DNA from: an uncultured bacterium
GTDB lineage: Bacteria; Fidelibacterota; Marinisomatia; Marinisomatales; UBA1611
NCBI GenBank assembly: GCA_943788175.1
Contig: CALSPG010000005.1
Span: 256,001 to 320,000 of the forward strand
Reading direction: 5' to 3'
Length of the DNA stretch: 64,000 nt
How positions within the stretch are numbered: position 1 is the first letter of the stretch; each line of letters opens with the position of its first letter. Below, piece after piece: positions 1 to 23,338 of this stretch. Below the pieces are notes generated by a model. That model saw only the letters and a list, made by a program, of their open reading frames with translations. It made no database searches and was not told where the DNA came from. A program made the position numbers and the translations under genes.

Positions 1-613
1 AGAACCTGGTTGTATGGGTTGGTATAATTATTTGCCAATTATGGAGTGTTATCATGGAATACTTAGTATGCATCATTCATTATCTGGTAGTCTTTCTTTA
101 AATAATCAGCAAGTAGATTTTAATGATGGCATTGGTTATACAGAAAAAGATTGGGGAAAAAATTTCCCTCAGAGTTGGGTTTGGGTACAAGCGAATCATT
201 TTAGAAAAAATAAAATAAGTTTATCTGCTTCTATAGCTAGAATACCATTACTTGGAACACAATTTGCGGGTTTTATTATTGGCCTGTTAATTGAAGATAA
301 GTTTTATCGATTTACTACATATCATTCTTCAAAGATTAAAAACTTATCATTAAAAGAGGATAAAATAGAATGGGTAGTAAAGCAGAAAGAATTAACTCTT
401 AAAATTTTTATATCACTTGGGAAAAAAACTGGTCTTCTTTTTGCTCCTGATTCAGAAGACATGATTGAAAAAGTTGAAGAGCATTTAGATTCAAAAGTTA
501 GGTTTGTATTAGAAAAAAATAGTAAAATTATTTTTGAAGATGACTCCGATTTTGCAGCAAGTGAAGTGGTTGGTGATATTGAAGCTTTGCTTAAATTGGC
601 TAACGATAACTAA
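1..613 (+). CDS. Tocopherol cyclase family protein (5'-truncated by window edge)
   Basis: Motif GYTEKDWGKNFPQSWVWVQANHF typical of tocopherol cyclase/VTE1-like proteins. The frame is open from base 2 (EPGCMGW...). Confidence 0.8.
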   Translation, partial: EPGCMGWYNYLPIMECYHGILSMHHSLSGSLSLNNQQVDFNDGIGYTEKDWGKNFPQSWVWVQANHFRKNKISLSASIARIPLLGTQFAGFIIGLLIEDKFYRFTTYHSSKIKNLSLKEDKIEWVVKQKELTLKIFISLGKKTGLLFAPDSEDMIEKVEEHLDSKVRFVLEKNSKIIFEDDSDFAASEVVGDIEALLKLANDN

Positions 614-624
614 ATTATAAATAT

Positions 625-1224
625 ATGAATAAAACAGTAATAATTTTTGTTGTAGTAATTTTAGGATTAATTTGCTTCAACATGGTTTGGGGTTTGTCAA
701 ACTCAATGCTAGAGACACCTAAATATAAATTAATTAAAAAATCTGGATCTTTTGAAATAAGGCAGTATGACCCGGTGGTAATTGCGAAAACGCAAGTACA
801 ATCAGCTTATAAAGAAGCTACTTCAACGGGTTTTCGAAGAATCGCAAATTACATTTTTGGCGGGAATGACAAAAATGTTGAAATTGCAATGACTGCCCCA
901 GTAATAACAGATAGCCCAGAAGATGCGAATGGTTCTTATGAGGTTCTATTCATTATGCCTAGTGCTTATGATACAAATAAGTTGCCAAAGCCAAATAGTC
1001 CGAATGTCGAAATTCTCGAAAGAGAATTGGGTCGGGTAGCTTCGATATCTTTCGGAGGCTGGGCAACGAGTGCAAAAATAAAAACTTACCAGCAAAAGCT
1101 TAGCAAGTGGATATCTAATCAACAGTTGCAAACTCTAGGGAACTTTAAGGTTGCTCAGTATAATTCCCCTTGGGCTTTACCGCCATTTAGACATAATGAA
1201 ATTTTGATTAAGATTGTTCAATGA
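625..1224 (+). CDS. SOUL family heme-binding protein
   Basis: ETPKY...FEIRQY, GFRRIANYIFGGN, IAMTAPV and AQYNSPWALPPFRHNEI are SOUL motifs. N-terminal hydrophobic segment. Confidence 0.9.
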   Translation: MNKTVIIFVVVILGLICFNMVWGLSNSMLETPKYKLIKKSGSFEIRQYDPVVIAKTQVQSAYKEATSTGFRRIANYIFGGNDKNVEIAMTAPVITDSPEDANGSYEVLFIMPSAYDTNKLPKPNSPNVEILERELGRVASISFGGWATSAKIKTYQQKLSKWISNQQLQTLGNFKVAQYNSPWALPPFRHNEILIKIVQ

Positions 1225-2051
1225 TTAGAGAACTTTTGAAAGTTGTTGAAGGTGTTGAAACATCTGATGGCGCTGGAGTAAAGCTGAGAAGAATCATTGG
1301 TGGTCCCGAGTTAAATATGTTTGACCCTTTTTTACTTTTTGATGAATTTGGAAGTGACAACCCAGATGATTACATGGCCGGATTCCCCGCTCACCCGCAC
1401 CGCGGATTTGAAACAGTTACCTATATGTTAAATGGTAAATTTAAACATAAAGATTCTTCTGGGAACGAAGGTATCCTAACTGATGGTTCAGTGCAGTGGA
1501 TGACTGCAGGAAGAGGGGTTATACATAGCGAAATGCCTGAAAAAACAGATGGTTTAGCAAGAGGGTTTCAATTATGGTTAAATCTTCCAAAAAATTTAAA
1601 AATGATAGATCCAGCATATAATGATATTCATCCTGACGATATCCCTTGTGTATTAATTAAGCAAGGTGAAGTAAAAGTAATCTCAGGTATTTTTGATGGT
1701 GTTGAGGGTCCTGGTCGGCCTCATACTGGAATGTTTTACTTCGATATAAAACTTAATGCAGGGGGCTTTATCGAGTTTCCGGTAGATGACCTTTGGAATA
1801 CCTTTATTTATGTTTATTCTGGCAGTGCAAATATTGAAAATAGAAGAGTTTATAAAGGTCAGTTAGGTCTTTTTAAAGACAGTGGAATGATTAAATTTAG
1901 CGCCGAAGATTCATCGAATTTACGATGTGTTGTTATCGGCGGTGAGCCTCTCAATGAGCCGGTGGCAAGAGGGGGTCCATTTGTCATGAATACTAAGGCT
2001 GAAATAATGAAAGCATTTAGTGATTATCAAGAAGGAGTATTAACAAAATAA
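1221..2051 (+). CDS. Pirin family protein
   Basis: DPFLLFDEF, GFPAHPHRGFETVTY, WMTAGRGVIHSE, GPFVMN. Confidence 0.95.
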   Translation: MIRELLKVVEGVETSDGAGVKLRRIIGGPELNMFDPFLLFDEFGSDNPDDYMAGFPAHPHRGFETVTYMLNGKFKHKDSSGNEGILTDGSVQWMTAGRGVIHSEMPEKTDGLARGFQLWLNLPKNLKMIDPAYNDIHPDDIPCVLIKQGEVKVISGIFDGVEGPGRPHTGMFYFDIKLNAGGFIEFPVDDLWNTFIYVYSGSANIENRRVYKGQLGLFKDSGMIKFSAEDSSNLRCVVIGGEPLNEPVARGGPFVMNTKAEIMKAFSDYQEGVLTK

Positions 2052-2052
2052 T

Positions 2053-2733
2053 ATGAATAAAATTTATAGATACAGTTATTTGACCTTAGTTACTGCTTCG
2101 TTTTTTGTGCTGCCTAATTGTTCTGGTAAAAAGAAACTGGATGATAGCTATAAGAAACCTATTAATACTCTATCTGAAAACTCTATAAGCTTAGCTTCTG
2201 GACAATACGAATTTGCCAAAACTTCTAGTGAAGTGCTCTGGGAATGTATGTGGCTAGGAGGAGCAAAGCACAATGGCAGTGTTCAGCTTATTGAGGGAGC
2301 TTTGGATATTTCCAAGAGCGGTCAAATAAGCGGTGCTTTTGTTGTTAGTTTAGATTCTATTAAGTGTTTTGATTTAAAAAATAAAGGTACAAATCAAAAA
2401 CTTATCAGTCACCTTAAAAGTGATGATTTTTTTGATGTTGAAAACTATCCAAAAGCGACTATTCAATTATTAAATGCTGAGCCTACAGGCGGTAATAATT
2501 TTAGATTTGAGGGCGACCTTATGATAAAGGGGAAATCTCACCCAATAGTATTTAATGGTCAAGTAATAGATCATCAAACTTATTATGAAGCTAGTTTAGA
2601 TCTGGTTTTTGATAGATCAAAATATGATGTCAGATACCGATCTGCTAGCTTATTTTCTGACCTCGGGGATAGAATAATCGCAGATGATGTCAAATTAAGT
2701 ATAAATGTGAATCTCAATAGATTAGAAAGATAA
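2053..2733 (+). CDS. YceI-like (polyisoprenoid-binding) lipoprotein
   Basis: HLKSDDFFDVENYP, GDLMIKG, DRSKYDV. Lipobox-like LPNC. Confidence 0.85.
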   Translation: MNKIYRYSYLTLVTASFFVLPNCSGKKKLDDSYKKPINTLSENSISLASGQYEFAKTSSEVLWECMWLGGAKHNGSVQLIEGALDISKSGQISGAFVVSLDSIKCFDLKNKGTNQKLISHLKSDDFFDVENYPKATIQLLNAEPTGGNNFRFEGDLMIKGKSHPIVFNGQVIDHQTYYEASLDLVFDRSKYDVRYRSASLFSDLGDRIIADDVKLSINVNLNRLER

Positions 2734-2736
2734 AAG

Positions 2737-3270
2737 GTGATGAATACCAAAATTAAAATAATCATCAATATCGTGGGCTTTTATATTGGGTGGTGGGGTT
2801 GTATTCTTGGGTCTTCAAACGGGTATCCATACATAGGTCCGCTTTTAATGCTTGTCTTTATAATTATTCATGGAAAATATTTTATTGGTAATGCAAAAGA
2901 ATTACAATTAATAGTCATAATGGGGTTAGTTGGTACTCTCGTTGACAGCTGTCTTTTCTTTTCACAATCTTTTGTATATGCGGGAGCTTATTCAGAAAAT
3001 CTATTTATTGCGCCTTTATGGATTACGGCAATGTGGGCAGGTTTTGCCGCTACGGTTAACCATTCAATGACTTTTTTTAAAGGTAAATGGATCCTTATGA
3101 TTGTCGCTGGTGCAATATTTGGGCCAGCAGCCTACTACACAGGCGAAGGCTTTGGCGCCATAACATTTCAATTGTCTCCTTTGTTATCAACTTTAATTAT
3201 TGGTGCTGTTTGGGCTGTTGCTATGCCATTGGTATTTTTTATAAATGAGAAGCTAGGATTAGGTGGTTAA
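2737..3270 (+). CDS. DUF2878-like membrane protein
   Basis: NIVGFYIGWWGC, PLWITAMW, GAIFGPAAY. Usual neighbour of cfa/DUF1365 clusters. Confidence 0.75.
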   Translation: MMNTKIKIIINIVGFYIGWWGCILGSSNGYPYIGPLLMLVFIIIHGKYFIGNAKELQLIVIMGLVGTLVDSCLFFSQSFVYAGAYSENLFIAPLWITAMWAGFAATVNHSMTFFKGKWILMIVAGAIFGPAAYYTGEGFGAITFQLSPLLSTLIIGAVWAVAMPLVFFINEKLGLGG

Positions 3271-3820
3271 TATTTTGAAAAAGTACACACTCACACTGGT
3301 TCTTTCTCTTTTAATTTATTCTAATTGTGAGGGTTTTATGAGCGATAATAAGAAATTTGGAGAATTAGAGACAGTTGACTATGTTGACTTAAAAAGATTT
3401 ATGGGAGATTGGTATGTAATTGCAAATATACCTACCTTCATTGAAAAAGGAGCTGTAAATGCTATTGAGTCGTACAGGCTTGACTCTAAAGGTAGGGTTC
3501 AAACTACTTTTACTTTCAGAAAAGACTCTCTAACTGGTCCTCAAAAAAAGTATAATCCAACAGGCTTCATTTACAATAAAGAAACAAACTCTGAATGGAG
3601 AATGCAGTTCCTATGGCCATTTAAATCACCTTTTTTGATTATTGACCTCGATGAAAAATACAATTACACTGTTATAGGTGTACCGAATAGAAAGTATGTT
3701 TGGATAATGGCGAGAAACCATGTTCTAGATGATAAGGTTTATAATGAAATAATTTCTAAACTTGAAAAAGTTGGTTATGACATCACCCAAATTCAAAAAA
3801 TTGAGCAGAATTGGGACTAG
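3263..3820 (+). CDS. blc: Bacterial lipocalin (Blc-like)
   Basis: VDLKRFMGDWYVIA lipocalin motif, QFLWPFK, YVWIMAR. Confidence 0.9.
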   Translation: MVNILKKYTLTLVLSLLIYSNCEGFMSDNKKFGELETVDYVDLKRFMGDWYVIANIPTFIEKGAVNAIESYRLDSKGRVQTTFTFRKDSLTGPQKKYNPTGFIYNKETNSEWRMQFLWPFKSPFLIIDLDEKYNYTVIGVPNRKYVWIMARNHVLDDKVYNEIISKLEKVGYDITQIQKIEQNWD

Positions 3821-3851
3821 TCTTTTCTATGCCTAAAGTTTAGTCCATTTA

Positions 3852-5099
3852 ATGAAATTAGCAATAATAGGTTCTGGTATCTCTGGATTGACAGCTGGCC
3901 ATTTGTTAAATAGAAAACATGACATATCTATTTTTGAAGCAAATGATTACATCGGTGGACACACACATACGCATAATTTAAAGGTTAGAAATAAAGACTA
4001 TTTAATTGACACTGGGTTTATCGTATATAATGAAAGAACATATCCTAGTTTTATAAATTTATTAGACAAATTGGGTGTCGAACGACAGCTTTCTACGATG
4101 GGCTTTAGCGTGAAGTCTACTAGCGAAGATTATGAATATTCAGGTGAGTCAATAAATAGCCTGTTTGCGAAAAGATCAAATATTTTTCGTTTAAGCTTTT
4201 TAAAGATGCTCTATGAAATGTATAAATTTGGTAAGGAAGCAGATTCAAGTGGTTTAGGCTTAAATGCTTCGACCACTCTAGGTGAATATTTAAAAGAAAA
4301 AAAGTATTCAAAAGAGTTTATTCATTATTTTATTACGCCAATGGGTGCGGCAATCTGGTCAACACCAGCAAACAAAGTACTAGACATGCCTGCATATTTT
4401 TTCATTAAATTTTTTTACAACCATGGCATGCTCGAAATATCTAATCGGCCTAATTGGTGGGTTATAAAAAATGGCTCTTCTCAGTACATAAGTAAAATCA
4501 TTAAAGGCTTTGAAGAAAAAATTTATTTATCATCACCAATCAAAAAGGTTGTAAGAACAGGTGATGGCATTGAATTATTTTTAGTTAAAAATGATAAAAA
4601 ATTAAACTTTGACGCTGTTATTTTTGCTACGCATAGTGACCAAGCTCTTAGTCTATTAGAGTCTCCATCTGATTTAGAAGAGGAAATACTTAAATCATTT
4701 CCTTATCAAAAAAATGAAGTTCTTTTGCATACAGATGCTACGGTTTTACCTAAGAGAAAATTAGCTTGGGCCAGTTGGAACTATCAGCTTGATGCTGATC
4801 CAAGTGCACCAGTAATTTTAACGTATAATATGAATATTCTACAATCAATTCAAAGTGATCAAACTTTTTGCGTGACTCTAAATGACCATGATTCAGTCGA
4901 TCAAAGTAAAGTAATCAAGAAGTTAAGCTATGATCACCCCTTGTTTACGGTGGACGCTGTAGCAGCGCAAAAAAGGAAACATGAAATTAGCGGTATAAAT
5001 AATACTTACTATTGCGGGGCATATTGGAGAAATGGTTTTCATGAAGACGGCGTAGTTAGTGCGTTGGATGTTTGTGAACAGTTCGGGGAAATATTGTGA
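3852..5099 (+). CDS. FAD-dependent oxidoreductase, UfaD-like fatty acyl desaturase
   Basis: GSGISGL Rossmann fold, DTGFIVYNERTYP, AWASWNY, CGAYWRNGFHEDG. Coupled to DUF1365 and cfa genes. Confidence 0.85.
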   Translation: MKLAIIGSGISGLTAGHLLNRKHDISIFEANDYIGGHTHTHNLKVRNKDYLIDTGFIVYNERTYPSFINLLDKLGVERQLSTMGFSVKSTSEDYEYSGESINSLFAKRSNIFRLSFLKMLYEMYKFGKEADSSGLGLNASTTLGEYLKEKKYSKEFIHYFITPMGAAIWSTPANKVLDMPAYFFIKFFYNHGMLEISNRPNWWVIKNGSSQYISKIIKGFEEKIYLSSPIKKVVRTGDGIELFLVKNDKKLNFDAVIFATHSDQALSLLESPSDLEEEILKSFPYQKNEVLLHTDATVLPKRKLAWASWNYQLDADPSAPVILTYNMNILQSIQSDQTFCVTLNDHDSVDQSKVIKKLSYDHPLFTVDAVAAQKRKHEISGINNTYYCGAYWRNGFHEDGVVSALDVCEQFGEIL

Positions 5100-5860
5100 A
5101 TTTATCAACCGAACATTTTCTATATACGGGTATTGTTAAGCATCGTAGATATACCCCATTCAATAGAGAGTTTTCTTATCCTATTTTTATGCTTTATCTT
5201 GATATAAATGATTTAAATAATGTAATGGAAAAATCAATTTTGTGGAATGTTAATAAAGCAGCAATGGTTTCATTTAATAGGAATGATTATCATAATGCAA
5301 AGACAAAATCTCTTGACCAGGCTGTCCGAGATACAGTTCAAAAAAAAGTTGGAGACAGACCTACCGGTAAAATCAGAATGCTGGCCCACCTCCGATATTT
5401 TGGTTATTGTTTTAATCCTGTAACTTTTTATTATTGTTTCAATCTCGAAGATAATAAGGTTGATTTTATTTTAGCGGAGGTTACAAATACACCGTGGGGA
5501 GAGAGGCACTCATACGTCTTAAGTGCTTCAAAAGATTCAAAGGAAAAAATCAAATCAACAATGAAGAAAGAACTTCATGTATCGCCTTTTTGGGACATGG
5601 ACCATCTGTATGACTGGAGTTTTAGCAGTCCGACAGAAAAGCTAGGTGTTTATATGAAAAATTTTAAAGAAGGGGAAAAAGTTTTTGATGCTACGCTTAA
5701 TTTGAAGAGACTTATTTTAAGTAAGAAGAGTTTATTGGTTACGATTTTTAAATTTCCATTTATGACGATAAAAGTCGTCTTTTGGATACATCTTCAAGCT
5801 TTTTTTTTATGGCTTCGTGGCGCAACTTTCTTTATCCATCCAAGCAAAACTAACAACTAA
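5096..5860 (+). CDS. DUF1365 protein (UfaO-like)
   Basis: HRRYTP, RYFGYCFNPVTFYYC, EVTNTPWGERHSY, KELHVSPF. Confidence 0.9.
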   Translation: MNLSTEHFLYTGIVKHRRYTPFNREFSYPIFMLYLDINDLNNVMEKSILWNVNKAAMVSFNRNDYHNAKTKSLDQAVRDTVQKKVGDRPTGKIRMLAHLRYFGYCFNPVTFYYCFNLEDNKVDFILAEVTNTPWGERHSYVLSASKDSKEKIKSTMKKELHVSPFWDMDHLYDWSFSSPTEKLGVYMKNFKEGEKVFDATLNLKRLILSKKSLLVTIFKFPFMTIKVVFWIHLQAFFLWLRGATFFIHPSKTNN

Positions 5861-5878
5861 TTTATAGAGAGATTTTAA

Positions 5879-7150
5879 ATGGCGAAAAAATTTTCAATTG
5901 AACAAGCTGCGTCTAGTACAACAATAAAAAGTAAGCCGAGTATTTTGGCGAAAATTTTTAAAAATTTAATATTATCACAATTTAGAAAAATTAATCATGG
6001 ATGTATTATTTTAAACGAAGGTAATAAAAAGATTATATTTGGTGACCAAGGGTCATCTTTAAAAGCAGAGGTAAATATTTATTCAGATGAATTTTACATT
6101 TTGGCTGGTAGCGGCGGGGACCTTGGAATTGCAGAGGCTTATGCTGCGGGTTACTGGGACGCAGATGATATGGTAAAACTAATTCAAATTGTAATTAAAA
6201 ATCAGGAAGTACAAAAAAGCTTAGAAGGGGGCCTAGCAAAATTAATTAGTCCAATTAATAGGTATATCCATAGGTCTCGTAGAAATACAGTTTCAGGTAG
6301 TAAAGAAAATATTGTAGCGCATTATGATTTAAGCAATGAGTTTTTTCAGACATGGTTAGATAAAAGCATGACTTACTCATGTGCTATTTTTGAACCAGAA
6401 GATTTATCCTTATTTGATGCTTCAAAAGAAAAGTTAGATCGTATTTGCCGCAAATTAGATATCCAAGCTGAAGATCATGTTGTTGAAATAGGAACCGGTT
6501 GGGGTAGCTTTGCTGTACATGCTGCGAAACAATATGGTTGTCGAGTAACAACAACTACGATTTCCAACGAGCAGCACGCTTATGTTTCTAATTTAATTGA
6601 AAAGGAAGGTCTGAGAGATAAAATAACATTGCTAAAAAATGATTACAGAGAGATTAAAGGACAATATGATAAACTTGTTTCTATTGAAATGATTGAGGCA
6701 GTTGGTTATAATTTTATACAGCAATTTTTTCAAACATGTTCAGATTTGCTTAAGCCCAATGGCTTGATGGCAATACAAGGGATTACTTATCACGAGCAGG
6801 GATTTGATAATCATCTTAATTCTGTTGATTTTATCAAAAAATATATTTTCCCGGGTTCAAATCTTATTTCAGTTAATCATGTTCTATCAGTTATTAAAGA
6901 TTTTACTGATCTTTCTTTAGTTCATTTAGAGGATATAACAAAATATTATGCTGAGACTTTAAAATTATGGAGGGAAAAATATAAAAAGGAGATGAGCAAA
7001 ATAAAAAAAATGGGATATAGTGATGAGTTTTTGAGAATGTGGGATTACTATTTTATTTATTGTGAGGCTGGGTTTAGGGAAAGATTTATTGGTGATGTTC
7101 AGCTTGTTATGGCGAAACCAAAAAACAAAAATATTCAAATAAACTATTAA
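5879..7150 (+). CDS. cfa: Cyclopropane-fatty-acyl-phospholipid synthase family methyltransferase (UfaM/Cfa-like)
   Basis: NIVAHYDLSNEFF, MTYSCA, EIGTGWG, SIEMIEAVG, FIKKYIFPG, YCEAGF. Confidence 0.9.
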   Translation: MAKKFSIEQAASSTTIKSKPSILAKIFKNLILSQFRKINHGCIILNEGNKKIIFGDQGSSLKAEVNIYSDEFYILAGSGGDLGIAEAYAAGYWDADDMVKLIQIVIKNQEVQKSLEGGLAKLISPINRYIHRSRRNTVSGSKENIVAHYDLSNEFFQTWLDKSMTYSCAIFEPEDLSLFDASKEKLDRICRKLDIQAEDHVVEIGTGWGSFAVHAAKQYGCRVTTTTISNEQHAYVSNLIEKEGLRDKITLLKNDYREIKGQYDKLVSIEMIEAVGYNFIQQFFQTCSDLLKPNGLMAIQGITYHEQGFDNHLNSVDFIKKYIFPGSNLISVNHVLSVIKDFTDLSLVHLEDITKYYAETLKLWREKYKKEMSKIKKMGYSDEFLRMWDYYFIYCEAGFRERFIGDVQLVMAKPKNKNIQINY

Positions 7151-7157
7151 AAAAACT

Positions 7158-8198
7158 ATGATAAAAAATTTAATTGATTTAGCAGAGAAAGGCATTTTAC
7201 CGGACTTTTTAATTCGTAGCGGAATTAGAAGAATGCAAAAAGAAAGAATTTTATGGTCGAAGTCTAAGACTGTTTCGGAGGTTGAAAAGCATCATCAGAA
7301 TTGGGTTGATGAGATGAAAAAAAGCTCAATTGCTTATGTTCCTGAGAAAGCAAATTCGCAGCATTATGAAGTGCCTCCAGCTTTTTTTGAAAATGCTCTT
7401 GGGGTCCACCTTAAGTACAGTTCTGGTTATTGGCCAGAGGGTATTAGTACGCTTGATGATTCTGAGTTGGCGATGTTAGAGTTAAGCGCTGAACGTGCAG
7501 AAATTTCAAATGGGGATCAAATTCTTGAATTGGGTTGTGGTTGGGGTTCTTTGACTATGTATATGGCAAAAAAATATCCTGACAGCTCAATTACGGCTGT
7601 TAGCAATTCTAGAGATCAAAGAAAATTCATAGAGGCGAAGTGTAAAAAGAGATCTATAAATAATGTAAAAGTAATTACAAAAGACATGAATGACTTCACA
7701 ATTGAAGAAAAATTTGATAAAATTGTTTCAATTGAAATGTTTGAGCACATGAGAAATTATGAGCAATTATTAGATAAGGTTGCTAGCTGGTTAAAACCAG
7801 GTGGAAAATTATTCATTCATATTTTTACACATAAAACATTAGTATATCCTTTCACTGAAGATGGTGAGGGTGATTGGATGGGGAGGAATTTTTTCAGCGG
7901 CGGCATTATGCCATCGCATCAGCTTCTATTATATTTTCAAAATAAATTGAATATTGAAGAGAGCTGGCGTTTTAATGGCTCACATTATGAGCAGACATCA
8001 CTTGCCTGGCTTAAAAAAATGGATAGTAATAAAAAAGAAATTATGAGCATTTTTGAAAATACTTATGGAGCAGGAGATGCTAAAATATGGTTTCAAAGAT
8101 GGAGAATTTTCTTTATGGCTTGCGAAGTCTTATTTGGTTATGATGGTGGCAAAGAATGGGGAGTTTCACATTACAGGTTTGTAAAATCTGGCAAATAG
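7158..8198 (+). CDS. Second CMAS-family SAM-dependent methyltransferase (coclaurine NMT-like clade)
   Basis: ANSQHYEVP, LKYSSGYW, LELGCGWGS, SIEMFEHMRN, RWRIFFMAC. Confidence 0.85.
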   Translation: MIKNLIDLAEKGILPDFLIRSGIRRMQKERILWSKSKTVSEVEKHHQNWVDEMKKSSIAYVPEKANSQHYEVPPAFFENALGVHLKYSSGYWPEGISTLDDSELAMLELSAERAEISNGDQILELGCGWGSLTMYMAKKYPDSSITAVSNSRDQRKFIEAKCKKRSINNVKVITKDMNDFTIEEKFDKIVSIEMFEHMRNYEQLLDKVASWLKPGGKLFIHIFTHKTLVYPFTEDGEGDWMGRNFFSGGIMPSHQLLLYFQNKLNIEESWRFNGSHYEQTSLAWLKKMDSNKKEIMSIFENTYGAGDAKIWFQRWRIFFMACEVLFGYDGGKEWGVSHYRFVKSGK

Positions 8199-8216
8199 CT
8201 TGTATAATTAAATATG
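8179..8216 (+). promoter_or_regulatory. sigma70-like promoter, leaderless architecture, for the desaturase
   Basis: TTGTAA(8179-84)-18 nt-TATAAT(8203-08)-5 nt-ATG(8214). No SD. Confidence 0.55.
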
Positions 8217-8942: not shown

Positions 8943-8995
8943 AACGCTCAAAAGTACTTGACATTTACCATTTAGGCTAAATAATATATGCCATG
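8931..8995 (+). promoter_or_regulatory. Direct-repeat operator plus sigma70 promoter (site 1)
   Basis: AAAACGCTT AAAACGCTC (8932-8949), 8 nt, TTGACA(8958-63)-18 nt-TAATAT(8982-87)-5 nt-ATG(8993). Confidence 0.75.
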
Positions 8996-9247
8996 GCAAA
9001 TAACGTTCAAAGTATTGAAAACAACATAACGGTTAAAAAGTATGGTAGTCATGTTAAGATTAGCATGGGAGCTACATATTGTATCATTTCTTGTTCAATT
9101 CATAAGATATCTGAATTCGTCAAAGTTGTAGATAACATGTTCTTAGACGGATGGGATGCTACTTCTGGAATTACATCAGAAGACGGTATGGTGTTTCAAT
9201 CGATGACAAAAATGTCAATAAATAATAACCAATCAAACAGTAATTAA
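8993..9247 (+). CDS. Small hypothetical protein, C-terminal half DUF1737-like
   Basis: FVKVVDNMFLDGWDATSGITSEDGMVFQSMTK resembles the DUF1737 pattern. First gene after the promoter. Confidence 0.55.
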   Translation: MANNVQSIENNITVKKYGSHVKISMGATYCIISCSIHKISEFVKVVDNMFLDGWDATSGITSEDGMVFQSMTKMSINNNQSNSN

Positions 9248-15544: not shown

Positions 15545-15579
15545 ATGTGCAACGATTTCATATTTAACTTTATGATGTG
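15541..15579 (+). promoter_or_regulatory. Putative marR promoter with an inverted repeat in the spacer
   Basis: TTGAAT(15541-46)-18 nt-TAACTT(15565-70). AATGTGCAA-CGA-TTTCATATT (15544-64) is a 7/9 inverted repeat. Confidence 0.4.
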
Positions 15580-16038
15580 TCTAATAATCAAAAATTGAAA
15601 AGTGATATCGATATAGGCATGTTGATGTCTCAAGTTGATAGGCTTTGCACTAAGCACTTTAGTCAAAACGCTCAAAATGCTGGTATAAATATCTCCCAAG
15701 ACCAATGGCTGGTTCTAGGTCCAGTTTGGAAGGTTGAGGGGATAGCACAGAAAGACATTGCTGAATATTGTGGTAAGGACAAAACAAGTGTAACAAAGAT
15801 AATTGACACGCTTGAGAAAAAAAATTTAATGGTGCGAGTTCCTGATCAGTTAGATCAAAGGATTAAGAGGGTATTCCTCAGTAACAAGGGCAAAGAGCTA
15901 ATGGAAAGTACAATGCCCATAATGGAACAGACTCGAAATGAAGTGCGTGAAGGTATTCCTGATGAAGAAATTGATTTATTTAAAACTGTATTAATTAAAA
16001 TATATAAAAACTTAACAGCGAATAAAAACTCCAACTAG
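15577..16038 (+). CDS. MarR family transcriptional regulator
   Basis: QWLVL, QKDIAE, DKTSVTKIIDTLEKK, DQRIKRVFLSNKG. Confidence 0.92.
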   Translation: MSNNQKLKSDIDIGMLMSQVDRLCTKHFSQNAQNAGINISQDQWLVLGPVWKVEGIAQKDIAEYCGKDKTSVTKIIDTLEKKNLMVRVPDQLDQRIKRVFLSNKGKELMESTMPIMEQTRNEVREGIPDEEIDLFKTVLIKIYKNLTANKNSN

Positions 16039-16060
16039 TTGAATCAGCAACTAATAATCT

Positions 16061-17491
16061 ATGAAAATATACGTTACTATTATATCTATCTTTCTGTCAT
16101 CGTGTGCAGAAAAATTTTCCTCGAATGATTTATTGATTTCAAAATCCATTCCTAGCGTATGGAATCATCCTTTCCCGGATACATCTAAGGTCATTGGAGA
16201 TTGGTGGGAATCATTTCAAGACACATCACTCAATAAAATCTTATCCGATTTTGATGAAAATAGTCCTGATTTAAAAACTGTAGCATCAAGACTTAAAATT
16301 GCAAAGCAGGTTTTGAGAATTAACAATGCGGTTCGCTTACCATCTGCATCACTTAGTTTGAATGGTTCAAGCAGGCAACAAAACTTGACTGCTTTTGGGT
16401 TATCTGGTGATTTTTTTGGAGGAGGGCAGGATTCAAATCAATCTAATACTGATAATAATAGTGTTACTAGCTTTGCTTCTAATAACTTTGGTATGAATTT
16501 ATCGATGCAGTGGGAATTAGATTTATGGGGTAAAATTTTTAATCGTTCTAAAGCAGCTTTTAAAGATTTCGAGTCTATATCCTACGATTTATCCTTCTTA
16601 AATTTTTCATTAAGAGTGCAATTGGCAAAATTATATTTTTCTACTTTAGAAGCTTTAAAGCAATATGAACTTTCGAAGGAGACTTTTAACAGTGTAGATG
16701 AGTTAGCAAATATGGTCTCTGCTAGGTATGACAAAGGATTGCGTTCATCATTAGATGTTAGGCTTACCCAATCATCTGTTTCATCTTCGCGAGCTCAGAT
16801 GGAAACTCGAAAGCAAATTTATATTAATTTAGTCAGAAGGCTGGAGTCAATGCTTGGAAAGTACCCAAGTGGAACATATAAAATTGCAAATGATATATCT
16901 TCTAAACTTCCAATTGTTAATGCGGGATTGCCTTCATCTATTTTAACCAGAAGACCCGATGTGAAATCTGCATTATCTAAATTACAAGCGGCTAGTTATA
17001 GAAAATCTGAGTCTATTAGTTCCTCTTTGCCAAGTTTCATTTTAACAAGCTCATTAGGTACTTCATCTAGCGAGCTTAGTGATATCCTGAACGATGACTA
17101 CCAGGTTTGGTCACAAGGATTGGCAATTGGGTTACCAGTTTTTCAAGGTGGTAGTGTTAGGGCAAATAAACTTATTGCTCAGGAAAATTTAGAAATTGCG
17201 AAGCAAGATTTAATCAAAGTCATTCTTAACGCATATTCGGAAGTTGAACAAACTCTTTTTGCTGAAAACTCAAATGATATTTTGCTTAACGCCTATATGG
17301 ATGCAGCAGAACAAGCTGAGGCGGCTTATAAGTTATCCAGAGAAAGATATGATTCTGGTTTGGTTAGTCTTATCGCGGTTATGGACAGTCAACAGCGGTG
17401 GTTTTTAGCAAGGTCGCAAGTATTAATCGCTAAAAAAAGTAAAATAGATACGCGTCTCAATTTGCTACTAGCGTTCGGGGGTAATTTTTAA
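16061..17491 (+). CDS. RND efflux outer membrane lipoprotein (OprM/NodT family)
   Basis: Lipobox LSSC, WWESFQD, WELDLWGK, LTRRPDV. Confidence 0.92.
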   Translation: MKIYVTIISIFLSSCAEKFSSNDLLISKSIPSVWNHPFPDTSKVIGDWWESFQDTSLNKILSDFDENSPDLKTVASRLKIAKQVLRINNAVRLPSASLSLNGSSRQQNLTAFGLSGDFFGGGQDSNQSNTDNNSVTSFASNNFGMNLSMQWELDLWGKIFNRSKAAFKDFESISYDLSFLNFSLRVQLAKLYFSTLEALKQYELSKETFNSVDELANMVSARYDKGLRSSLDVRLTQSSVSSSRAQMETRKQIYINLVRRLESMLGKYPSGTYKIANDISSKLPIVNAGLPSSILTRRPDVKSALSKLQAASYRKSESISSSLPSFILTSSLGTSSSELSDILNDDYQVWSQGLAIGLPVFQGGSVRANKLIAQENLEIAKQDLIKVILNAYSEVEQTLFAENSNDILLNAYMDAAEQAEAAYKLSRERYDSGLVSLIAVMDSQQRWFLARSQVLIAKKSKIDTRLNLLLAFGGNF

Positions 17492-17508
17492 CATGAAGCG
17501 AGAAAAAA

Positions 17509-18639
17509 ATGAAAATTAATTTTAAAAAACTTAGTCCATTCATTATCATAATTACGAGTATTGTTGTGGTTAATTTAATGGTGAAACTAAAGCCCGAAGC
17601 TGAGTTTCAAAAACCAAAAATCATTCCGCAGGTCGTAGAAACTTTGTCGGCTTATCCAACTGAAGTACAAGCCAAAATAAATTCACAGGGTACAATTAGG
17701 CCGCAGCATGAGATTTTTGTGACATCTGAAGTGAGTGGAAAAGTAGAATGGATTTCTTCAAATTTCCTGGATGGTGCAGGATTTAATTTGAGTGATACTC
17801 TAATGAAAATTGAAAAAAGAGATTATGAGCTTGCTTTAATATCATCAGAGTCTAACTTATTCCAAGCAAGGCTTGCTCTACAAAGAGAAGATGCTGAATC
17901 TAAGCTAGCTAATATAGAATGGAAAAGAGTCGGTAAAGGCGATGCTTCGAGTTTGACGTTGAGAGAGCCTCAGCTTGCGCAGGCTAGAGCAGTTTTAGCA
18001 GCAGCTGAAGCAGCGTATGAGCAGGCAAAACGAAATTTAAAAAGAACTTATATTGTTGCTCCTTTTGACGGGAGAGTTAGAAAAAAAATGGTTGATATTG
18101 GAGCTAATCTGATTCCTGGCTCTCGAATAGCAGATATTTATAATACAATGAATTATGAAGTAAGGTTGCCGATTGCAGATAAAGATATCCCTTTTCTTGG
18201 TGTTCCATTAGATGGTACGACCATCAATGAAAACAATAGACCTAATGTCAGACTGACAACTAGTTATGGTGGTGATACATTTCAAGCTAATGGTTTTATT
18301 GTAAGGTCAGAGTCTCAAATTGACCCCAGGACAAGGATGATTTCAGTTATTGCTACAATCCCAGTTAAGAATGAAAACCAAAAATTAAAAGTTGGTATGT
18401 TTGTTAATGCTGAAATTGATGGTCTTAAATATAAAAATATTACCATAGTCCCTCGAAGTTCAGTCAAAAATGATATGATTTGGGTCGTTGAGAAATTTGT
18501 CCTTCGTAAAAAATCAGTTGAAGTTATTAGACTAGAAAATGATTTCGCTTTTATAGCAGATGGCTTGGAAAAAAACGATCGAATACTTACTACTAGATTA
18601 GACTCGTATGTCGATGGTATGCCCGTAAAAGAGAACTAG
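17509..18639 (+). CDS. RND efflux periplasmic adaptor (MFP)
   Basis: SEVSGKV lipoyl half-motif, coiled coil, IVAPFDGRV. Confidence 0.92.
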   Translation: MKINFKKLSPFIIIITSIVVVNLMVKLKPEAEFQKPKIIPQVVETLSAYPTEVQAKINSQGTIRPQHEIFVTSEVSGKVEWISSNFLDGAGFNLSDTLMKIEKRDYELALISSESNLFQARLALQREDAESKLANIEWKRVGKGDASSLTLREPQLAQARAVLAAAEAAYEQAKRNLKRTYIVAPFDGRVRKKMVDIGANLIPGSRIADIYNTMNYEVRLPIADKDIPFLGVPLDGTTINENNRPNVRLTTSYGGDTFQANGFIVRSESQIDPRTRMISVIATIPVKNENQKLKVGMFVNAEIDGLKYKNITIVPRSSVKNDMIWVVEKFVLRKKSVEVIRLENDFAFIADGLEKNDRILTTRLDSYVDGMPVKEN

Positions 18640-18643
18640 ATTT

Positions 18644-21600
18644 ATGAAAAACATCATTCGTTGGTTCATTCTAAATACCGTAGCGGCAAATCTGCTAATG
18701 ATATTTATCATCATTGCAGGGCTTTTTACCTTGTCGAGATTGAGAATGGAAGTCTTTCCAGATATAACAATTCCTATTATAAATGTTTCTGTTTTATATC
18801 CTGGCGCTTCTCCTGAGGATATTGAAGAATCTATTTGTGTAAAAGTTGAGGAGCAAGTTCAGGGAATTAATGGATTAAAACGCATTACTAGCTCATCTAA
18901 TGAAAGTTATGGCTCAATTAATATCGAGGTTGAAAATGGTTATGACATAGATGAAGTGAAAGATGAAGTCAAATCCTTAGTCGATGCGATCACATCTTTT
19001 CCTGATGATGCGGAAAAGCCTACCGTTAAGAGTTTTGATGGACAGCCTGAGGTTATAACAATTGCAGTTCATGGAAATGTTGATGAAGTAAGTTTGTTAA
19101 ATATTGCAGAAAAAGTTCGAGATGAAGTAAGTGATTTGCCAAGTATAACCCAAACAAGGTTAGGGAAAAAGCCCAAAGAAATATCGATTGAAATATCAGA
19201 GAACACGCTTCAAAAATATGGTCTTTCCTTTGATTATGTAGCCAGCAAGATTCGATCTTCTTCAATGGATGTCCCAGGAGGAGCGATTGAAACATACGAT
19301 GGTGAAATTTTAATACGTTCGAAAGGGCAGGCATATTCGGGAGATGAATTTGGGGCTATCCCAGTATTATCATTATCGGATGGATCAACTGTTTTGCTTA
19401 GAGATATAGCAAATATTGTTGATGGATTCCAAGATGTTGAATATGATATTAAGTTTAATAGTGAGCCTGCTTTATTGATTAGAGTATACAGAACAGGGGA
19501 GCAGAATGCCTTAGATATAGCAGATGAAGTTCATAAGTATATAATAAAGAAAAACCCGACTATGCCGCCTGGTATCTCTTTAACTACAATGAAAGATGAG
19601 TCTGTCATCTTACGGGGTCGAATTGAGCTCTTAACTGAAAACGCATACTTGGGCTTAGTCCTTGTTTTAATTGTTCTAGCTTTATTTCTTAAACCTAAAT
19701 TAGCCGCTTGGGTTTCTTTAGGTATTCCAATCTCTTTTATGGGCGGTTTCTGGCTTCTCCCTCTTTTTGACGTTTCAATAAATATGATTTCTCTTTTTAC
19801 TTTTATACTTGTACTTGGAATTGTTGTTGATGATGCAGTAGTCGTTGGTGAGAATATCCATATTTTTAGGAAGAGGGGTTTGAATGCTGTTGATGCCGCT
19901 CTTGAGGGTGCCTATCAAGTTGCAAAGCCCGTAATATTTGCAGTTCTGACTACAATGGTTACCTTCTCCCCGATGATTCTCGTAGAGGGTGCAATGGGGA
20001 AAATATGGAGAATTATTCCGGTTGTAACAATTGTTGTTTTAATATTTTCATTAATTGAGTCTTTAACTATACTCCCTGCTCATTTAGCACATATGAAAGA
20101 TGATGATGAAGAAGAACAAAACAGGTTTCTATCCTGGTGGTCAAAAGTTCAACTTGTTATCCACAATGGATTGCAAAGCTTTATAAAAAATCAATATAAC
20201 CCTCTATTAAGGTTAGCATTAAAAAATAGAGGAAATACAATCGCAATTTCTATTTCCATCCTTATTTTTACAATTGGTTTTGTAGCTAGTGGTTTTATAA
20301 AATTTAATTTTTTTCCTCCGCTCGAAGCTGATATCGTTATTGCTGGCGTAGAATATCCTGAGGGTACTCCTGTTCAAATAACAAAAGTTGGTCTAGAGCA
20401 AGTTGAAAAATCTGCTTACAGGCTCAAAGATTCATTAGAAGTCCTCTACCCAGATAAAGAAATATTCATCAATATGGTTTCTACCGCTGGGGACCAACCA
20501 ATAAAAACTCAATCAGCTAGGGGTCCTGGTAATCTTGATGCCAACTTTTTTGGCTCTCACTTAGCAGAATGTGTTATCGAGCTTGCTCCTGGTGAAGAAA
20601 GGCCAGTAAGTACAATTGAAATTTCAAAAATATGGAGAGAGCTGACAGGGCCCATAGCAGGAGTGAAGCAAGTTACCTTCGATTCGGATCTTTTTAGTTC
20701 TGGCGCACCTATTGAAATACAGCTTTCAAGCATCAGTAGGGGAGATTTAAAGGAAGTCACTTCCATACTCAAGGATAAGTTGCAGACCTATGCTGGGGTT
20801 TTTGATATCAAAGATTCTTTTAGTGCTGGAAAAGATGAGATCAAACTTAGTCTTCGCCCTGAAGCTCAAAACTATGGGATAACCATGGCATCGCTTGCAC
20901 GTCAAGTAAGGCAAGCTTTCTATGGTGAAGAGGTGCAAAGAGTTCAAAGAGGCAGAGACGAAATCAAAGTTTTTTTAAGGTATCCAAAAGAGGAAAGAGC
21001 TAGTCTAAATAATTTAGAACAAATGAATGTAAGAGTGGGTAATGATATTGAAGTGCCTCTTGGGCAAGTTGCTAGCAGCGAATTATCTAGCGGTTATTCA
21101 ACTATTACAAGAACAGATCGAAAAAGGTCAATTAGTGTTACTGCAGATGTAGATCTTAGTGAAGCAAATGCTAATGAAATATTGGCTAAGTTTGAGAAAG
21201 AGCATATCCTTCCAATATTGGAGAGTTATCCTAATGTTATTTATAGTTTTGAAGGAGAGCAAAGAGAGCAAAGAGATACACTGGGTTCGCTATTTAAAAA
21301 TTTTGCACTAGCATTGTTTATTGTTTACGTGCTACTTGCAATTCCTTTTAAATCTTATTCGCAGCCCCTTATAATAATGTCGGCAATACCCTTTGGTTTT
21401 ACTGGAGCAGTTATAGGTCATGTTATTATGGGTATGAACTTGGCAGTGCTATCAATAATTGGAATTGTGGCGCTCTCAGGAGTAGTGGTCAATGACAGTT
21501 TGGTGATGGTAGACTTTATAAATAGATATCGTCAAGAAGATGGAAAGTCTTGCTTGGAAGCCGCATTAGCTGCTGGTCCTCGAAGGTTTAGGCCAATACT

Positions 21601-21808
21601 ACTTACTTCGGTTACCACGTTTGTGGGTTTATTCCCGCTATTAATCGAAAAGAGCGTGCAAGCACAGTTTCTAGTTCCAATGGCGGTTTCACTAGCTTTT
21701 GGTGTATTATTTGCAACTTTTATTACACTAATCTTGGTGCCAACTAGTTATTTAATTATTGAGGATATGAAAGATTTTTCCGCAAAACTATTTAATAAAA
21801 ACGCTTAA
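18644..21808 (+). CDS. RND efflux permease (AcrB family)
   Basis: 1054 aa. GIVVDDAVVVGENI, RFRPILLTS. Confidence 0.95.
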   Translation: MKNIIRWFILNTVAANLLMIFIIIAGLFTLSRLRMEVFPDITIPIINVSVLYPGASPEDIEESICVKVEEQVQGINGLKRITSSSNESYGSINIEVENGYDIDEVKDEVKSLVDAITSFPDDAEKPTVKSFDGQPEVITIAVHGNVDEVSLLNIAEKVRDEVSDLPSITQTRLGKKPKEISIEISENTLQKYGLSFDYVASKIRSSSMDVPGGAIETYDGEILIRSKGQAYSGDEFGAIPVLSLSDGSTVLLRDIANIVDGFQDVEYDIKFNSEPALLIRVYRTGEQNALDIADEVHKYIIKKNPTMPPGISLTTMKDESVILRGRIELLTENAYLGLVLVLIVLALFLKPKLAAWVSLGIPISFMGGFWLLPLFDVSINMISLFTFILVLGIVVDDAVVVGENIHIFRKRGLNAVDAALEGAYQVAKPVIFAVLTTMVTFSPMILVEGAMGKIWRIIPVVTIVVLIFSLIESLTILPAHLAHMKDDDEEEQNRFLSWWSKVQLVIHNGLQSFIKNQYNPLLRLALKNRGNTIAISISILIFTIGFVASGFIKFNFFPPLEADIVIAGVEYPEGTPVQITKVGLEQVEKSAYRLKDSLEVLYPDKEIFINMVSTAGDQPIKTQSARGPGNLDANFFGSHLAECVIELAPGEERPVSTIEISKIWRELTGPIAGVKQVTFDSDLFSSGAPIEIQLSSISRGDLKEVTSILKDKLQTYAGVFDIKDSFSAGKDEIKLSLRPEAQNYGITMASLARQVRQAFYGEEVQRVQRGRDEIKVFLRYPKEERASLNNLEQMNVRVGNDIEVPLGQVASSELSSGYSTITRTDRKRSISVTADVDLSEANANEILAKFEKEHILPILESYPNVIYSFEGEQREQRDTLGSLFKNFALALFIVYVLLAIPFKSYSQPLIIMSAIPFGFTGAVIGHVIMGMNLAVLSIIGIVALSGVVVNDSLVMVDFINRYRQEDGKSCLEAALAAGPRRFRPILLTSVTTFVGLFPLLIEKSVQAQFLVPMAVSLAFGVLFATFITLILVPTSYLIIEDMKDFSAKLFNKNA

Positions 21809-21853
21809 AACGCTCATTATTGATTGACAAGGTCAGCTGGTTTCAATTAAATT
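21797..21853 (+). promoter_or_regulatory. Direct-repeat operator plus sigma70 promoter (site 3)
   Basis: AAAACGCTT AAAACGCTC (21798-21815), 8 nt, TTGACA(21824-29)-18 nt-TAAATT(21848-53). The 20-mer is identical to 8931-8950. Confidence 0.75.
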
Positions 21854-21896
21854 ATAAATAATATATTTGTGGCATTTAAATAATAAGGTATAAAAA

Positions 21897-22826
21897 ATGA
21901 AAGTTGCAGTTTTTGGTGGCACTGGGTTCGTAGGTTCATACTTAATAGAGCATCTTCTTGAACAGGGTCATCATCCAAGGCTTCTAGTTCGTAAGGGCTC
22001 AGATAGTAAAGTGATTTCTTCTCAGAATTGTGAGATTATCAACGGTGACATCAATGATAAAAATTCAATTAAAGAAACTATTTCCGGTGTAGAAGCAGTT
22101 ATTTATACGATTGGAATTATTAGAGAGTTCAAATCAAAGGGCGTGACTTTTGAAAATGCCCACTTTGATGGAGCTGTTAAATGTATTGACGCTGCAGAAG
22201 AGGCAGGTGTAAATAAGTTCATTCTCATGAGCGCAAATGGTGTTTGCCCTGATGGGACGGGTTATCAAAAAACAAAATGGATGTCTGAACAATATCTTAA
22301 GAATACGAAATTGAATTGGACAATTTTTAGACCCTCCACAATTTTTGGAGATCCAAGAGGTAGCGGCCGTCCTGAATTTTGTTCGCAACTGAAAAAAGAT
22401 ATGATTGGTTTGCCATTTCCTGCTCCCCTTTTTCATGAGGGTCTTAATCCTTTTGATGCGGGAAATTTTTCTATGTCCCCGATTCATATTAAAGATGTCG
22501 CTAAAAGTTTTATCAGCTCGTTAAACAATAAAAAGCTAGAAAAAAAAACAATAGAGCTCGGGGGACAGGCTTTTACTTGGAAACAAATTATTAAAAATAT
22601 AGGCATAGCTTCTGGTAAAAATAAATTTATGGTTCCTGCGCCAGTATTTGCTGTCAAATTAGTTGCTAATATTTTAGATAGATTTAGTTGGTTTCCAGTT
22701 ACGGCTGACCAGTTAACCATGCTGGTTGAGGGCAATACTTGTGATTCTTCAAAGTTTTTTACTGAAAATGAATTAATACCAATTCCTTTTAATGAAGAAA
22801 ATCTTTCCTATCTAGGTAAAGATTAA
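21897..22826 (+). CDS. NAD(P)-dependent epimerase/dehydratase (NDUFA9-like atypical SDR)
   Basis: GGTGFVG, YQKTK, FRPSTIFG, PIHIKDVA. Confidence 0.88.
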   Translation: MKVAVFGGTGFVGSYLIEHLLEQGHHPRLLVRKGSDSKVISSQNCEIINGDINDKNSIKETISGVEAVIYTIGIIREFKSKGVTFENAHFDGAVKCIDAAEEAGVNKFILMSANGVCPDGTGYQKTKWMSEQYLKNTKLNWTIFRPSTIFGDPRGSGRPEFCSQLKKDMIGLPFPAPLFHEGLNPFDAGNFSMSPIHIKDVAKSFISSLNNKKLEKKTIELGGQAFTWKQIIKNIGIASGKNKFMVPAPVFAVKLVANILDRFSWFPVTADQLTMLVEGNTCDSSKFFTENELIPIPFNEENLSYLGKD

Positions 22827-22828
22827 TA

Positions 22829-23338
22829 TTGAAATATTTAATTGGATTAAGTGTACTAGCTATGTTCTCACTAACTATAAATACCTTTTTTTCAAAGAAA
22901 ATTTATTTAGCTGAAGGTGAATTAGCTCCCCATTTTGAGTTGTTGGATCAAGATGAAAATCTTATTTCATCCACAGATTTTAATGGTAGAAGAAGTGTCA
23001 TATATTTTTTCCCTTACGCTGACACTCCTGGTTGAGTAAAAGAAGCTTGCGGGTTCCGCAATATTTATGAAGAATTTGAAAAAAATAATATTTCAGTTTT
23101 TGGAATTAGTTACAATAATCCAAGTGCTTTAAAAAAGTTTAAAGTTAGGTACAACCTGCCTTTTAGCTTTCTTTCAGACACAAAAAAAGTTGTTGCAAAA
23201 AGTTTTGGAGCGGATGGCTTACTTACTCCAAAAAGAATGACTTTTGTCATTGATGAAAACGGTAAAGTTGAAAAAATATATAAGAAAGTGAATATTAATA
23301 CACATGCAGAAACTATACTCAAAGATCTTATTAGCTAA
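22829..23338 (+). CDS. bcp: Selenocysteine-containing peroxiredoxin (BCP/PrxQ family), UGA at 23033-23035
   Basis: YFFPYADTPG-TGA-VKEACGFR... The frame continues with GIS, YNLPFSFLSD, RMTFVIDENG to TAA 23336-38. TGA occupies the peroxidatic Cys of PxxxTxxC. Confidence 0.88.
23047..23061 (+). promoter_or_regulatory. Bacterial SECIS-like hairpin
   Basis: TTGCGG-GTT-CCGCAA, perfect 6-bp stem. The G-first loop begins 17 nt after the UGA. Confidence 0.7.

Follow-up and report, generated by a model that had tools for sequence, protein, structure and literature searches.

A probable photo-oxidative-stress regulon in an uncultured SAR406 bacterium, predicted to be run by a CarH/LitR-family regulator without its B12 site

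The DNA analyzed here is a 64,000-nucleotide stretch (the window; G000:C5:256001-320000) of the genome of an uncultured SAR406 (Marinisomatota) bacterium, G000, whose assembly comprises 2.27 Mb in 12 contigs with 33% G+C and is 92% complete. Its positions 2 to 23338 hold a run of genes that includes photolyases, peroxidases, and a transcriptional regulator of the CarH/LitR family, a family with photoreceptors of the adenosylcobalamin (AdoCbl) type among its members. As the best explanation of the whole, one in which we have fair confidence, we propose a photo-oxidative-stress regulon run by this regulator, which would have lost its B12 site. The regulator belongs to a clade marked by a cysteine cluster (here the Cys type, as opposed to the B12 type), and it forms part of the same explanation that this clade was probably derived from AdoCbl-type photoreceptors sharing the same operator. 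Judged from the comparison of genomes, the regulon is real and conserved, and the Cys type is a new form within the known LitR/CarH family.

A tandem-repeat operator that accompanies the regulator

The putative operator consists of the sequence AWAACGCTY occurring twice as a tandem 9-bp direct repeat, with an A-rich continuation. AAAACGCTYAAAACGCTC has two exact matches in the window (8932 and 21798) and two more that differ from it at two positions (13228 and 15665), four in all versus 0.10 expected, a count that none of 100 shuffles reached. A sequence-only reading of this DNA had placed the repeat at three internal promoters, and it is indeed present there, at 8932, 13228, and 21798 (sites 1 to 3; Table 1). 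The repeats of sites 1 and 3 are followed, after 8 nt, by a perfect TTGACA; site 2, at the regulator promoter, has a weaker hexamer (CTTTAC/TTTACC) and a degenerate distal repeat (AAAAAGTTC).

The genome-wide scan proposed in the same reading, run with a position weight matrix (PWM) built from 20 sites taken from other genomes, returned four sites scoring 29.1 to 30.7, three of them in the window; the next scores were 21.6, 19.8, and 17.2. Across the whole genome, the tandem form is confined to the places listed here, and the single 8-mer occurs 94 times. The lower-scoring hits were not accepted as operators: C1:123490 (21.6) was judged, by eye only, to be coding; C1:154107 (19.8) lies inside a 365-aa open reading frame (ORF); and 15665 (17.2) lies inside the MarR coding frame and was treated as probably a chance match. 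In other genomes, TAATGGTTAAAACGCTC (G002 and G004) and the hits in G026 and on G012:C66 likewise look like coding or chance matches. The fourth operator (C5:463971-463987, reverse strand) lies outside the window; 26 nt separate it from the start codon of a gene that runs divergently and encodes a 470-aa secreted protein with a DUF4397 domain and a type IX secretion system (T9SS) tail. Its arrangement is kept in G001, G003, G006, and G011, and in G021 the divergent gene encodes a different, 128-aa protein. Following the motif in its own orientation, we found neither a conserved small ORF nor a conserved RNA downstream of this site, and its surroundings gave no Rfam family at E values up to 0.1; positions 1 to 24000 of the window gave none at the gathering score.

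For comparison, we used a set of 41 related SAR406 genomes. The regulator search matched 14 of the 41, including G000, and returned 15 loci; the match in G005 is doubtful, and in G007 a profile search picked up a further fragment of the regulator, at the end of a contig. The strict motif pattern (WAANGNTYANAACGCTC) matched 39 times, in 13 of the 41 genomes, and the reversed control pattern 7 times. The co-occurrence of motif and regulator, which had been suggested as a check, is evident: among 13 genomes that have the regulator, 10 have the motif too (not found in 3), and among the 28 in which no regulator was matched, 3 have it (not found in 25). The repeat lies directly 5' of the regulator gene at 12 of the 15 loci, namely, at all 10 loci of the Cys type, whose proteins are as little as 52% identical, and at both B12-type loci of G020. 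In addition, G031 has a two-mismatch version 79 nt 5' of its regulator, and in G038 the divergent intergenic region beside the regulator operon holds a perfect copy.

A CarH-type fold with an altered cofactor pocket

As assembled, the regulator ORF (13417-14172) encodes 251 aa with a sub-threshold B12-binding match. An ATG at 13290 opens a MerR-type N-terminus that hits a stop, and the remaining helix-turn-helix (HTH) continues in the +1 frame; in an alignment with four same-genus genomes, the G000 gene has one surplus base. That base is missing from otherwise about 99% identical contigs of two independent metagenome studies (runs X1 and X4), and a surplus base in the short-chain dehydrogenase/reductase (SDR) gene, at 9735/9736, is missing from contigs of runs X1, X4, and X15. 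Because near-identical contigs from other studies lack both bases, the two breaks are assembly errors, and the native regulator is a protein of about 293 aa.

The regulator comprises a winged HTH of the BldC/CtMerR type, a four-helix bundle, and a Rossmann-like domain. NCBIfam gave weak BldC and CarH hits, and the truncated window protein gave weak HTH_17, MerR_1, and BldC hits; intact orthologs carry PF12728/PF13411, and the MerR/BldC-type N-terminal HTH of class I LitR/CarH proteins is present. The closest solved structure by sequence is CtMerR (PDB 8JBS; E = 1.6e-15). An AlphaFold model of the ortholog in G001 (95% identical), made from a 77-row alignment, has a pLDDT of 86.2 and a pTM of 0.84, and its top Foldseek match is full-length TtCarH (5C8F, E = 2e-11; also 5C8E and 5C8D). 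The two C-terminal domains superpose on 8JBS with TM scores of 0.81 to 0.83 and an rmsd of 2.7 to 3.0, and matches to the cobalamin-binding domains of 8JBS, 5C8A, 3WHP, and 8C3x have TM scores of 0.68 to 0.83. The four-helix bundle and the Rossmann-type cobalamin-binding-domain fold are thus both found by AlphaFold and Foldseek, and these results, together with the 8JBS match, confirm that a MerR/BldC-CarH-like regulator stands behind one of the repeat promoters.

The motifs that define LitR/CarH proteins are Wx9EH and D/ExHxxG/P-x41-SxT/V-x22-27-GG (PMC9304148), and residues W131, H142, and H177 of CarH are key to AdoCbl binding and photochemistry (PMC11796333). Both motifs are altered in the clade of the window protein. 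In the first, which contacts the adenosyl group, Trp and His are replaced, so that Wx9EH is absent. In the second, the lower-axial His that ligates cobalt has become Pro ("NLPDLG") and SxT has become YLC, followed by an inserted NMQCC that creates Cx3CC; only the GG is retained. A conserved Cys also ends strand 1, and most relatives have the same Cys. All 116 close full-length homologs carry Cx3CC and "NLPDLG," and none carries Wx9EH. The apparent B12 independence claimed in the sequence-only reading is therefore supported, at the level of sequence, by the loss of Wx9EH, the axial His, and SxT.

The Cys type is narrow at 50% clustering, with 3 full-length clusters beyond the query's own among 338 family clusters (E up to 0.001). 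A 103-row representative alignment contains 64 canonical rows, 12 of the Cys type, 19 without both motifs and without the Cys insertion, and 8 mixed. In a quick maximum-likelihood search with midpoint rooting only, the Cys-type rows and one truncated row form a single clade (SH-aLRT, 98) nested among B12-type rows. The same-order homologs in G038, G031, and G020 retain both B12 motifs, and P0134 looks transitional: it retains EH, yet the Pro and the Cys motif are present. A single bacterial order appears to span the series from the canonical AdoCbl type through P0134 to the Cys type on one operator, which makes a change of cofactor in a photoreceptor directly approachable.

Proposed regulation, its alternatives, and known systems

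BldC-type domains bind tandem direct repeats. CarH operators, too, are tandem direct repeats, and CarH binds its 11-bp repeats head-to-tail (PMC9304148). From the comparative evidence we infer what binds the motif, the sign of the regulation, and the signal. The regulator would bind head-to-tail on the tandem 9-bp repeats that end 8 nt 5' of the -35 hexamer. It would act on its own operon (regulator and class II cyclobutane pyrimidine dimer [CPD] photolyase), possibly with reading on into MarR and the efflux pump, and would be autoregulated via site 2. Further targets would be the small-protein/SDR/VOC-like/glutathione peroxidase (GPx)/CryPro operon, the operon of the NmrA-like reductase and the selenocysteine peroxiredoxin, and the gene for the DUF4397 protein, through the reverse site beside it. 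Repression would prevail in the unstressed state and be relieved under light or oxidative stress.

Several observations weigh against this explanation. All of the regulatory links are comparative and drawn from sequence. The two well-conserved repeats lie 5' of the -35 hexamer, at about -44 to -61 on the assumption of leaderless mRNAs, a position that suits an activator as well as a repressor, and the repeat period is 9 bp versus 11 bp in CarH. Three genomes have the regulator without the strict motif, G022 and G024 carrying mismatched versions and G031 a weak version. Conversely, the assemblies of two genomes with the motif, G004 and G012, contain no regulator; the place where it would be expected in G004 falls beyond the start of the contig bearing the NmrA site, and the G012 assembly is 76% complete. 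(In G026, the sole motif hit resembles coding sequence.) The Cys loop (residues 231 to 240) has a pLDDT of 59, the lowest in the structured domains of the AlphaFold model. The genome retains B12-dependent enzyme domains (MetH-size and MCM-size hits), and B12 is therefore available to the cell. Finally, the sequence-only reading, correct in its outline, is too wide here: the operator is not shared by the whole set of about 25 genes but only by those from 8993 onward. The first 11 or so genes have no site in this genome, and the intergenic region before the MMPL gene at the head of the first operon has no operator and no PWM hit of 8 or more. This lipid operon is linked to the regulon in G000 by adjacency only.

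On the sign of regulation, the chief alternative keeps the same regulator and operator and makes the protein an activator that binds just 5' of the -35 hexamer and recruits RNA polymerase on a signal. The conserved repeats end 8 nt 5' of the -35 hexamer at all three window promoters and would not by themselves cover the hexamers, and BldC-type proteins can activate. Against this, A-rich degenerate third and fourth units could extend the oligomer over the -35 hexamer, and every characterized LitR/CarH member considered here is a repressor (PMC9758184, PMC9304148). In addition, the operator occurs as a second site class, reverse oriented and 19 to 28 nt from a start codon. Such sites are found at DUF4397/T9SS-secreted protein genes in G000, G001, G003, G006, and G011; a similarly placed reverse site in G010 stands at a 492-aa divergent ORF. 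In three genomes of one genus, a reverse-oriented site lies 23 nt 5' of the proteorhodopsin start codon (G004, L030 1501-1517; G002, L075; G006, L076). So close to the DUF4397 and proteorhodopsin ATG codons, the sites would fall within the core promoter or downstream of it, where a repressor might be expected. We thus regard activation as possible but on balance somewhat unlikely. The proteorhodopsin sites suggest that the regulator controls proteorhodopsin in some species; G000 also encodes a proteorhodopsin, with a degraded site (L066 1400-1458).

As for the signal, it would no longer be the photolysis of AdoCbl; sensing may proceed via the cysteines, as a thiol oxidation switch or a metal/Fe-S center, or via a partner protein. 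In this fold the usual strand order is 2-1-3-4-5, so that the ends of strands 1 and 3 are neighbors. Because the cysteines replace lower-face residues of the old cofactor pocket and these strand ends are adjacent, we prefer the thiol switch or metal/Fe-S center. In its full form, that the cobalamin pocket has been rebuilt as a four-cysteine site that senses photo-oxidative stress directly, the idea is speculative, and we advance it only tentatively. A partner protein would be the main alternative route, for which CryPro and the conserved zinc-ribbon protein come into question; the latter (9259-9501) is a candidate partner or antirepressor of the regulator. A rebuilt pocket might instead bind a tetrapyrrole, either a corrinoid held noncanonically (for example, base-on or Cys ligated) or another chromophore such as a heme or bilin, and sense light directly. 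In favor of such a photoreceptor, the whole cobalamin-binding-domain fold is kept with high confidence, the GG motif is conserved, the cell retains B12-dependent enzymes, a SOUL heme-binding gene lies in the cluster, and the B12-like SCHIC domains, proposed heme binders, provide a precedent. We consider it unlikely, given that the residues corresponding to W131, H142, and H177 of CarH (PMC11796333) are replaced in 116 of 116 close homologs, as is SxT.

The remaining alternative, that the repeat is the site of a different transcription factor or an UP-like element and the CarH-like protein merely a member of the regulon, could appeal to the A-rich motif, its location where UP elements lie, and the motif-bearing genomes G004 and G012, but seems very improbable, as the CGCTC core is invariant whereas UP elements contain A and T only, the motif stands 5' of the regulator gene in every Cys-type locus (52 to 95% protein identity) and in distant B12-type loci, and a search for it came up empty in 25 of the 28 genomes in which no regulator was matched, the missing regulators belonging to fragmented or incomplete assemblies.

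Other sensors of light or singlet oxygen were also sought. The 92%-complete genome has no match to the ChrR cupin (PF12973), and the three extracytoplasmic-function (ECF)-type sigma hits all lie outside the window and not beside the cluster, in agreement with the earlier statement that the window has no ECF sigma/ChrR pair. No BLUF domain was found, nor was the LOV signature GxNC[RK]F[LM] in a six-frame translation; there are two PAS_9 matches, which belong to frames of 427 and 609 aa.

Among known systems, CtMerR of Chloracidobacterium thermophilum (8JBS/8JBT) is the best sequence match and domain superposition and shares the HTH subtype (...KRW...GGHR...F). CtMerR keeps Wx9EH and the His of DxHxxA and binds AdoCbl (PMC11796333), whereas the window protein lacks both motifs and has the Cx3CC insertion. 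With CarH and class I LitR of Thermus, Myxococcus, and Bacillus, the window system shares the three-part architecture, the full-length fold, and photoprotective (here putative) targets. Its putative operator resembles theirs in part, both being tandem direct repeats near the -35 hexamer: the CarH repeat is 11 bp and present in three or four copies (PMC9304148), as opposed to 9 bp here with two conserved copies that end 8 nt 5' of the -35 hexamer. A further difference is that CarH targets carotenoid genes, in contrast to the photolyases and peroxidases found here behind a regulator without AdoCbl motifs. In evolutionary logic, the closest parallel is CarA of Myxococcus xanthus, which does without B12 and arose from a CarH-type ancestor inside a single lineage. 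However, CarA keeps the classic B12 motif and EH without the Trp and needs CarS, CarQ/CarR, and other factors (PMC9304148); the window regulator has lost the B12 motif as well as the His of EH, and no ChrR-type cupin was found in its genome.

LitR classes II to V are also B12-independent relatives of CarH. Class II LitR of Pseudomonas (PplR1/PmlR2) is the closest in regulon content, being a B12-free repressor that controls phrB (photolyase), ufaM (furan fatty acid), the cryptochrome-like cryB, genes without a known function, and its own paralog (PMC9758184). It has only the four-helix bundle, a short-LOV partner, and a TGTACA-N12-TGTACA operator, whereas the window regulator keeps the Rossmann domain and has a direct-repeat operator. 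The RpoE-ChrR singlet-oxygen regulon of Rhodobacter/Cereibacter resembles the window in its UfaD/UfaO/CFA-type lipid genes and photolyase (PMC7380195; PMC5241685), and Vibrio has an RpoE-ChrR regulon with a MerR-like factor. In contrast, this genome has no ChrR cupin, and the cluster's promoters are of a sigma-70-like type that carries a repeat operator. The description of the regulon as undescribed in the sequence-only reading hence needs to be narrowed, since LitR/CarH control of a photolyase and ufaM is known in Pseudomonas (PMC9758184) and B12-free relatives are known; what is new is the Cys-type variant.

SAR406/Marinisomatota are abundant and uncultured, and to our knowledge nothing in their gene regulation has been tested. 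A search of a literature library found no paper connecting Marinimicrobia with CarH, nor did a looser Marinisomatota/photolyase/MerR search among the papers listed. The locus would represent a complete circuit made up of a single regulator, an operator with sharp limits, and some four promoters in each genome. With this operator, light-stress regulons could be predicted from metagenomic sequence, and so could the proteorhodopsin link. If a four-cysteine sensor is indeed at work, an abundant uncultured ocean phylum would not depend on the scarce vitamin B12 to control its photolyases, a selenoperoxiredoxin, and, in sister species, proteorhodopsin, and a natural replacement of the cofactor would have taken place inside a photoreceptor fold with the operator unchanged.

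Gene content of the cluster and its counterparts in sister genomes

The count of about 25 co-oriented genes holds: Pfam and NCBIfam place 25 genes on the forward strand from 2 to 23338, with a 163-aa ORF as the single reverse-strand exception (Table 1). Pfam identified, in the first part, tocopherol-cyclase-like, SOUL, pirin, YceI, DUF2878, lipocalin, amine-oxidase-like, DUF1365, two CMAS-type methyltransferase, and desaturase genes; in the middle, two small proteins without a family, SDR, VOC-like, GPx, a DPRP/CryPro-type photolyase relative, and the regulator; and in the last part (with NCBIfam), the class II CPD photolyase (phr2), MarR, a TolC/MFP/RND pump, the NmrA-like reductase, and the peroxiredoxin.

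Table 1. Features of the gene cluster in the window
Feature	Coordinates	Strand	Basis or remark
First operon, entering from upstream (MMPL and tocopherol-cyclase-like)	2..8942	+	Pfam; without operator in this genome
First-operon genes: SOUL, pirin, YceI, DUF2878, lipocalin, UfaD-like amine oxidase, DUF1365 (UfaO family), two CMAS methyltransferases, desaturase	2..8942	+	Pfam
Operator site 1, two 9-bp direct repeats	8932..8949	+	PWM 30.7; TTGACA at 8958-8963, 8 nt downstream
84-aa protein, first gene past site 1, present in genus g1	8993..9247	+	No Pfam/NCBIfam match
80-aa zinc-ribbon-like protein, two CxxC pairs (four Cys)	9259..9501	+	Alignments; no Pfam/NCBIfam match
SDR, broken by one surplus base near 9735/9736 in the assembly	9502..10213	+	Pfam
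98-aa VOC/glyoxalase-like protein and Cys-type glutathione peroxidase	10217..11053	+	Pfam; order kept in G011, G010, G022
DPRP/CryPro-type photolyase-related protein	11080..12564	+	PF04244, 2e-45
163-aa protein, signal-peptide-like N-terminus, divergent from regulator gene	12687-13178	-	No family match
Operator site 2, 5' of regulator gene	13228..13245	+	PWM 29.1; position kept in all Cys-type orthologous loci
CarH/LitR-family regulator, Cys-type clade	13290..14172	+	One surplus base in assembly at about 13331-13333; uncorrected ORF, 13417-14172
Class II CPD photolyase	14192..15544	+	TIGR00591, 2e-178; 20 nt behind regulator; position shared with G002, G011, G010, G022
MarR and TolC/MFP/RND efflux operon, without its own operator	15577..21808	+	Pfam
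Operator site 3	21798..21815	+	PWM 30.1; TTGACA at 21824-21829, 8 nt downstream; site also precedes orthologs in G001-G004
NmrA-like NAD(P)-binding reductase	21897..22826	+	Pfam
PrxQ/Bcp peroxiredoxin with in-frame TGA at 23033-23035	22829..23338	+	Probable selenoprotein, not a fragment

The genes immediately downstream of the operator are the regulator and class II CPD photolyase, the NmrA-like reductase and peroxiredoxin, and the small-protein/SDR/VOC/GPx/CryPro operon. In other genera, they also include DUF2878 (directly, in G012 and G021), a photolyase-like FAD_binding_7 protein (G010), a 163-aa protein without an assigned family (G011), and an MFS transporter (G038). Orthologs of the 84-aa protein sit behind the same operator in G006 and G002, and the zinc-ribbon-like protein is the first gene downstream of the operator in four to five genera (including G021, G011, G010, and G022). 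The SDR ortholog in G011 is intact, with 231 aa. Photolyase, GPx, CryPro, NmrA-like, peroxiredoxin, and UfaD/UfaO/CMAS lipid genes are syntenic with the regulator across genera and also lie beside B12-type regulators; linkage of the MarR/efflux operon to the regulator is genus specific, as G002 has this operon and in G011 and G022 it is not beside the regulator. A 163-aa ORF is present in G002 at the position equivalent to that of the reverse-strand ORF, and one RNA-library contig of run X17 covers the window copy.

DUF1365 corresponds to UfaO, and UfaM, UfaD, and UfaO have roles in furan fatty acid formation (PMC7380195). At 3852-8198 of the window, Pfam places DUF1365 (UfaO), an amine-oxidase-like relative of UfaD, and a CMAS-type methylase next to each other, and by this gene set the first operon is furan-fatty-acid-like. 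The MMPL gene just 5' of the window (L007 9426-9985) also appears split in the assembly.

RNA-library contigs from two studies cover the regulator and its targets, which indicates presence only, as these libraries may contain DNA; all four read runs consist of contigs, from which no transcription start, strand, level, or induction can be read. In one RNA-library contig (X15), position 16000 is joined directly to 21848 without the efflux pump in between. As the short side of this joint has only 21 letters, it was not used, and a population variant lacking the pump is no more than a possibility.

The peroxiredoxin at the end of the cluster would appear truncated if its in-frame TGA (23033-23035) were read as a stop. 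This TGA sits at the position of the peroxidatic Cys (TPG-U-VKEAC), and a 6-bp hairpin begins 11 nt past it; a 51-nt fold of this hairpin, which resembles a selenocysteine insertion sequence, has a z score of -0.24, which is not significant, so the folding energy adds no support. The TGA is kept in G001, G002, G003, G004, and G031, and G038 has TGC. As the TGA is conserved and SelA and SelB are encoded in the genome (G000:C3:49137-52111), the protein is probably a selenoprotein.

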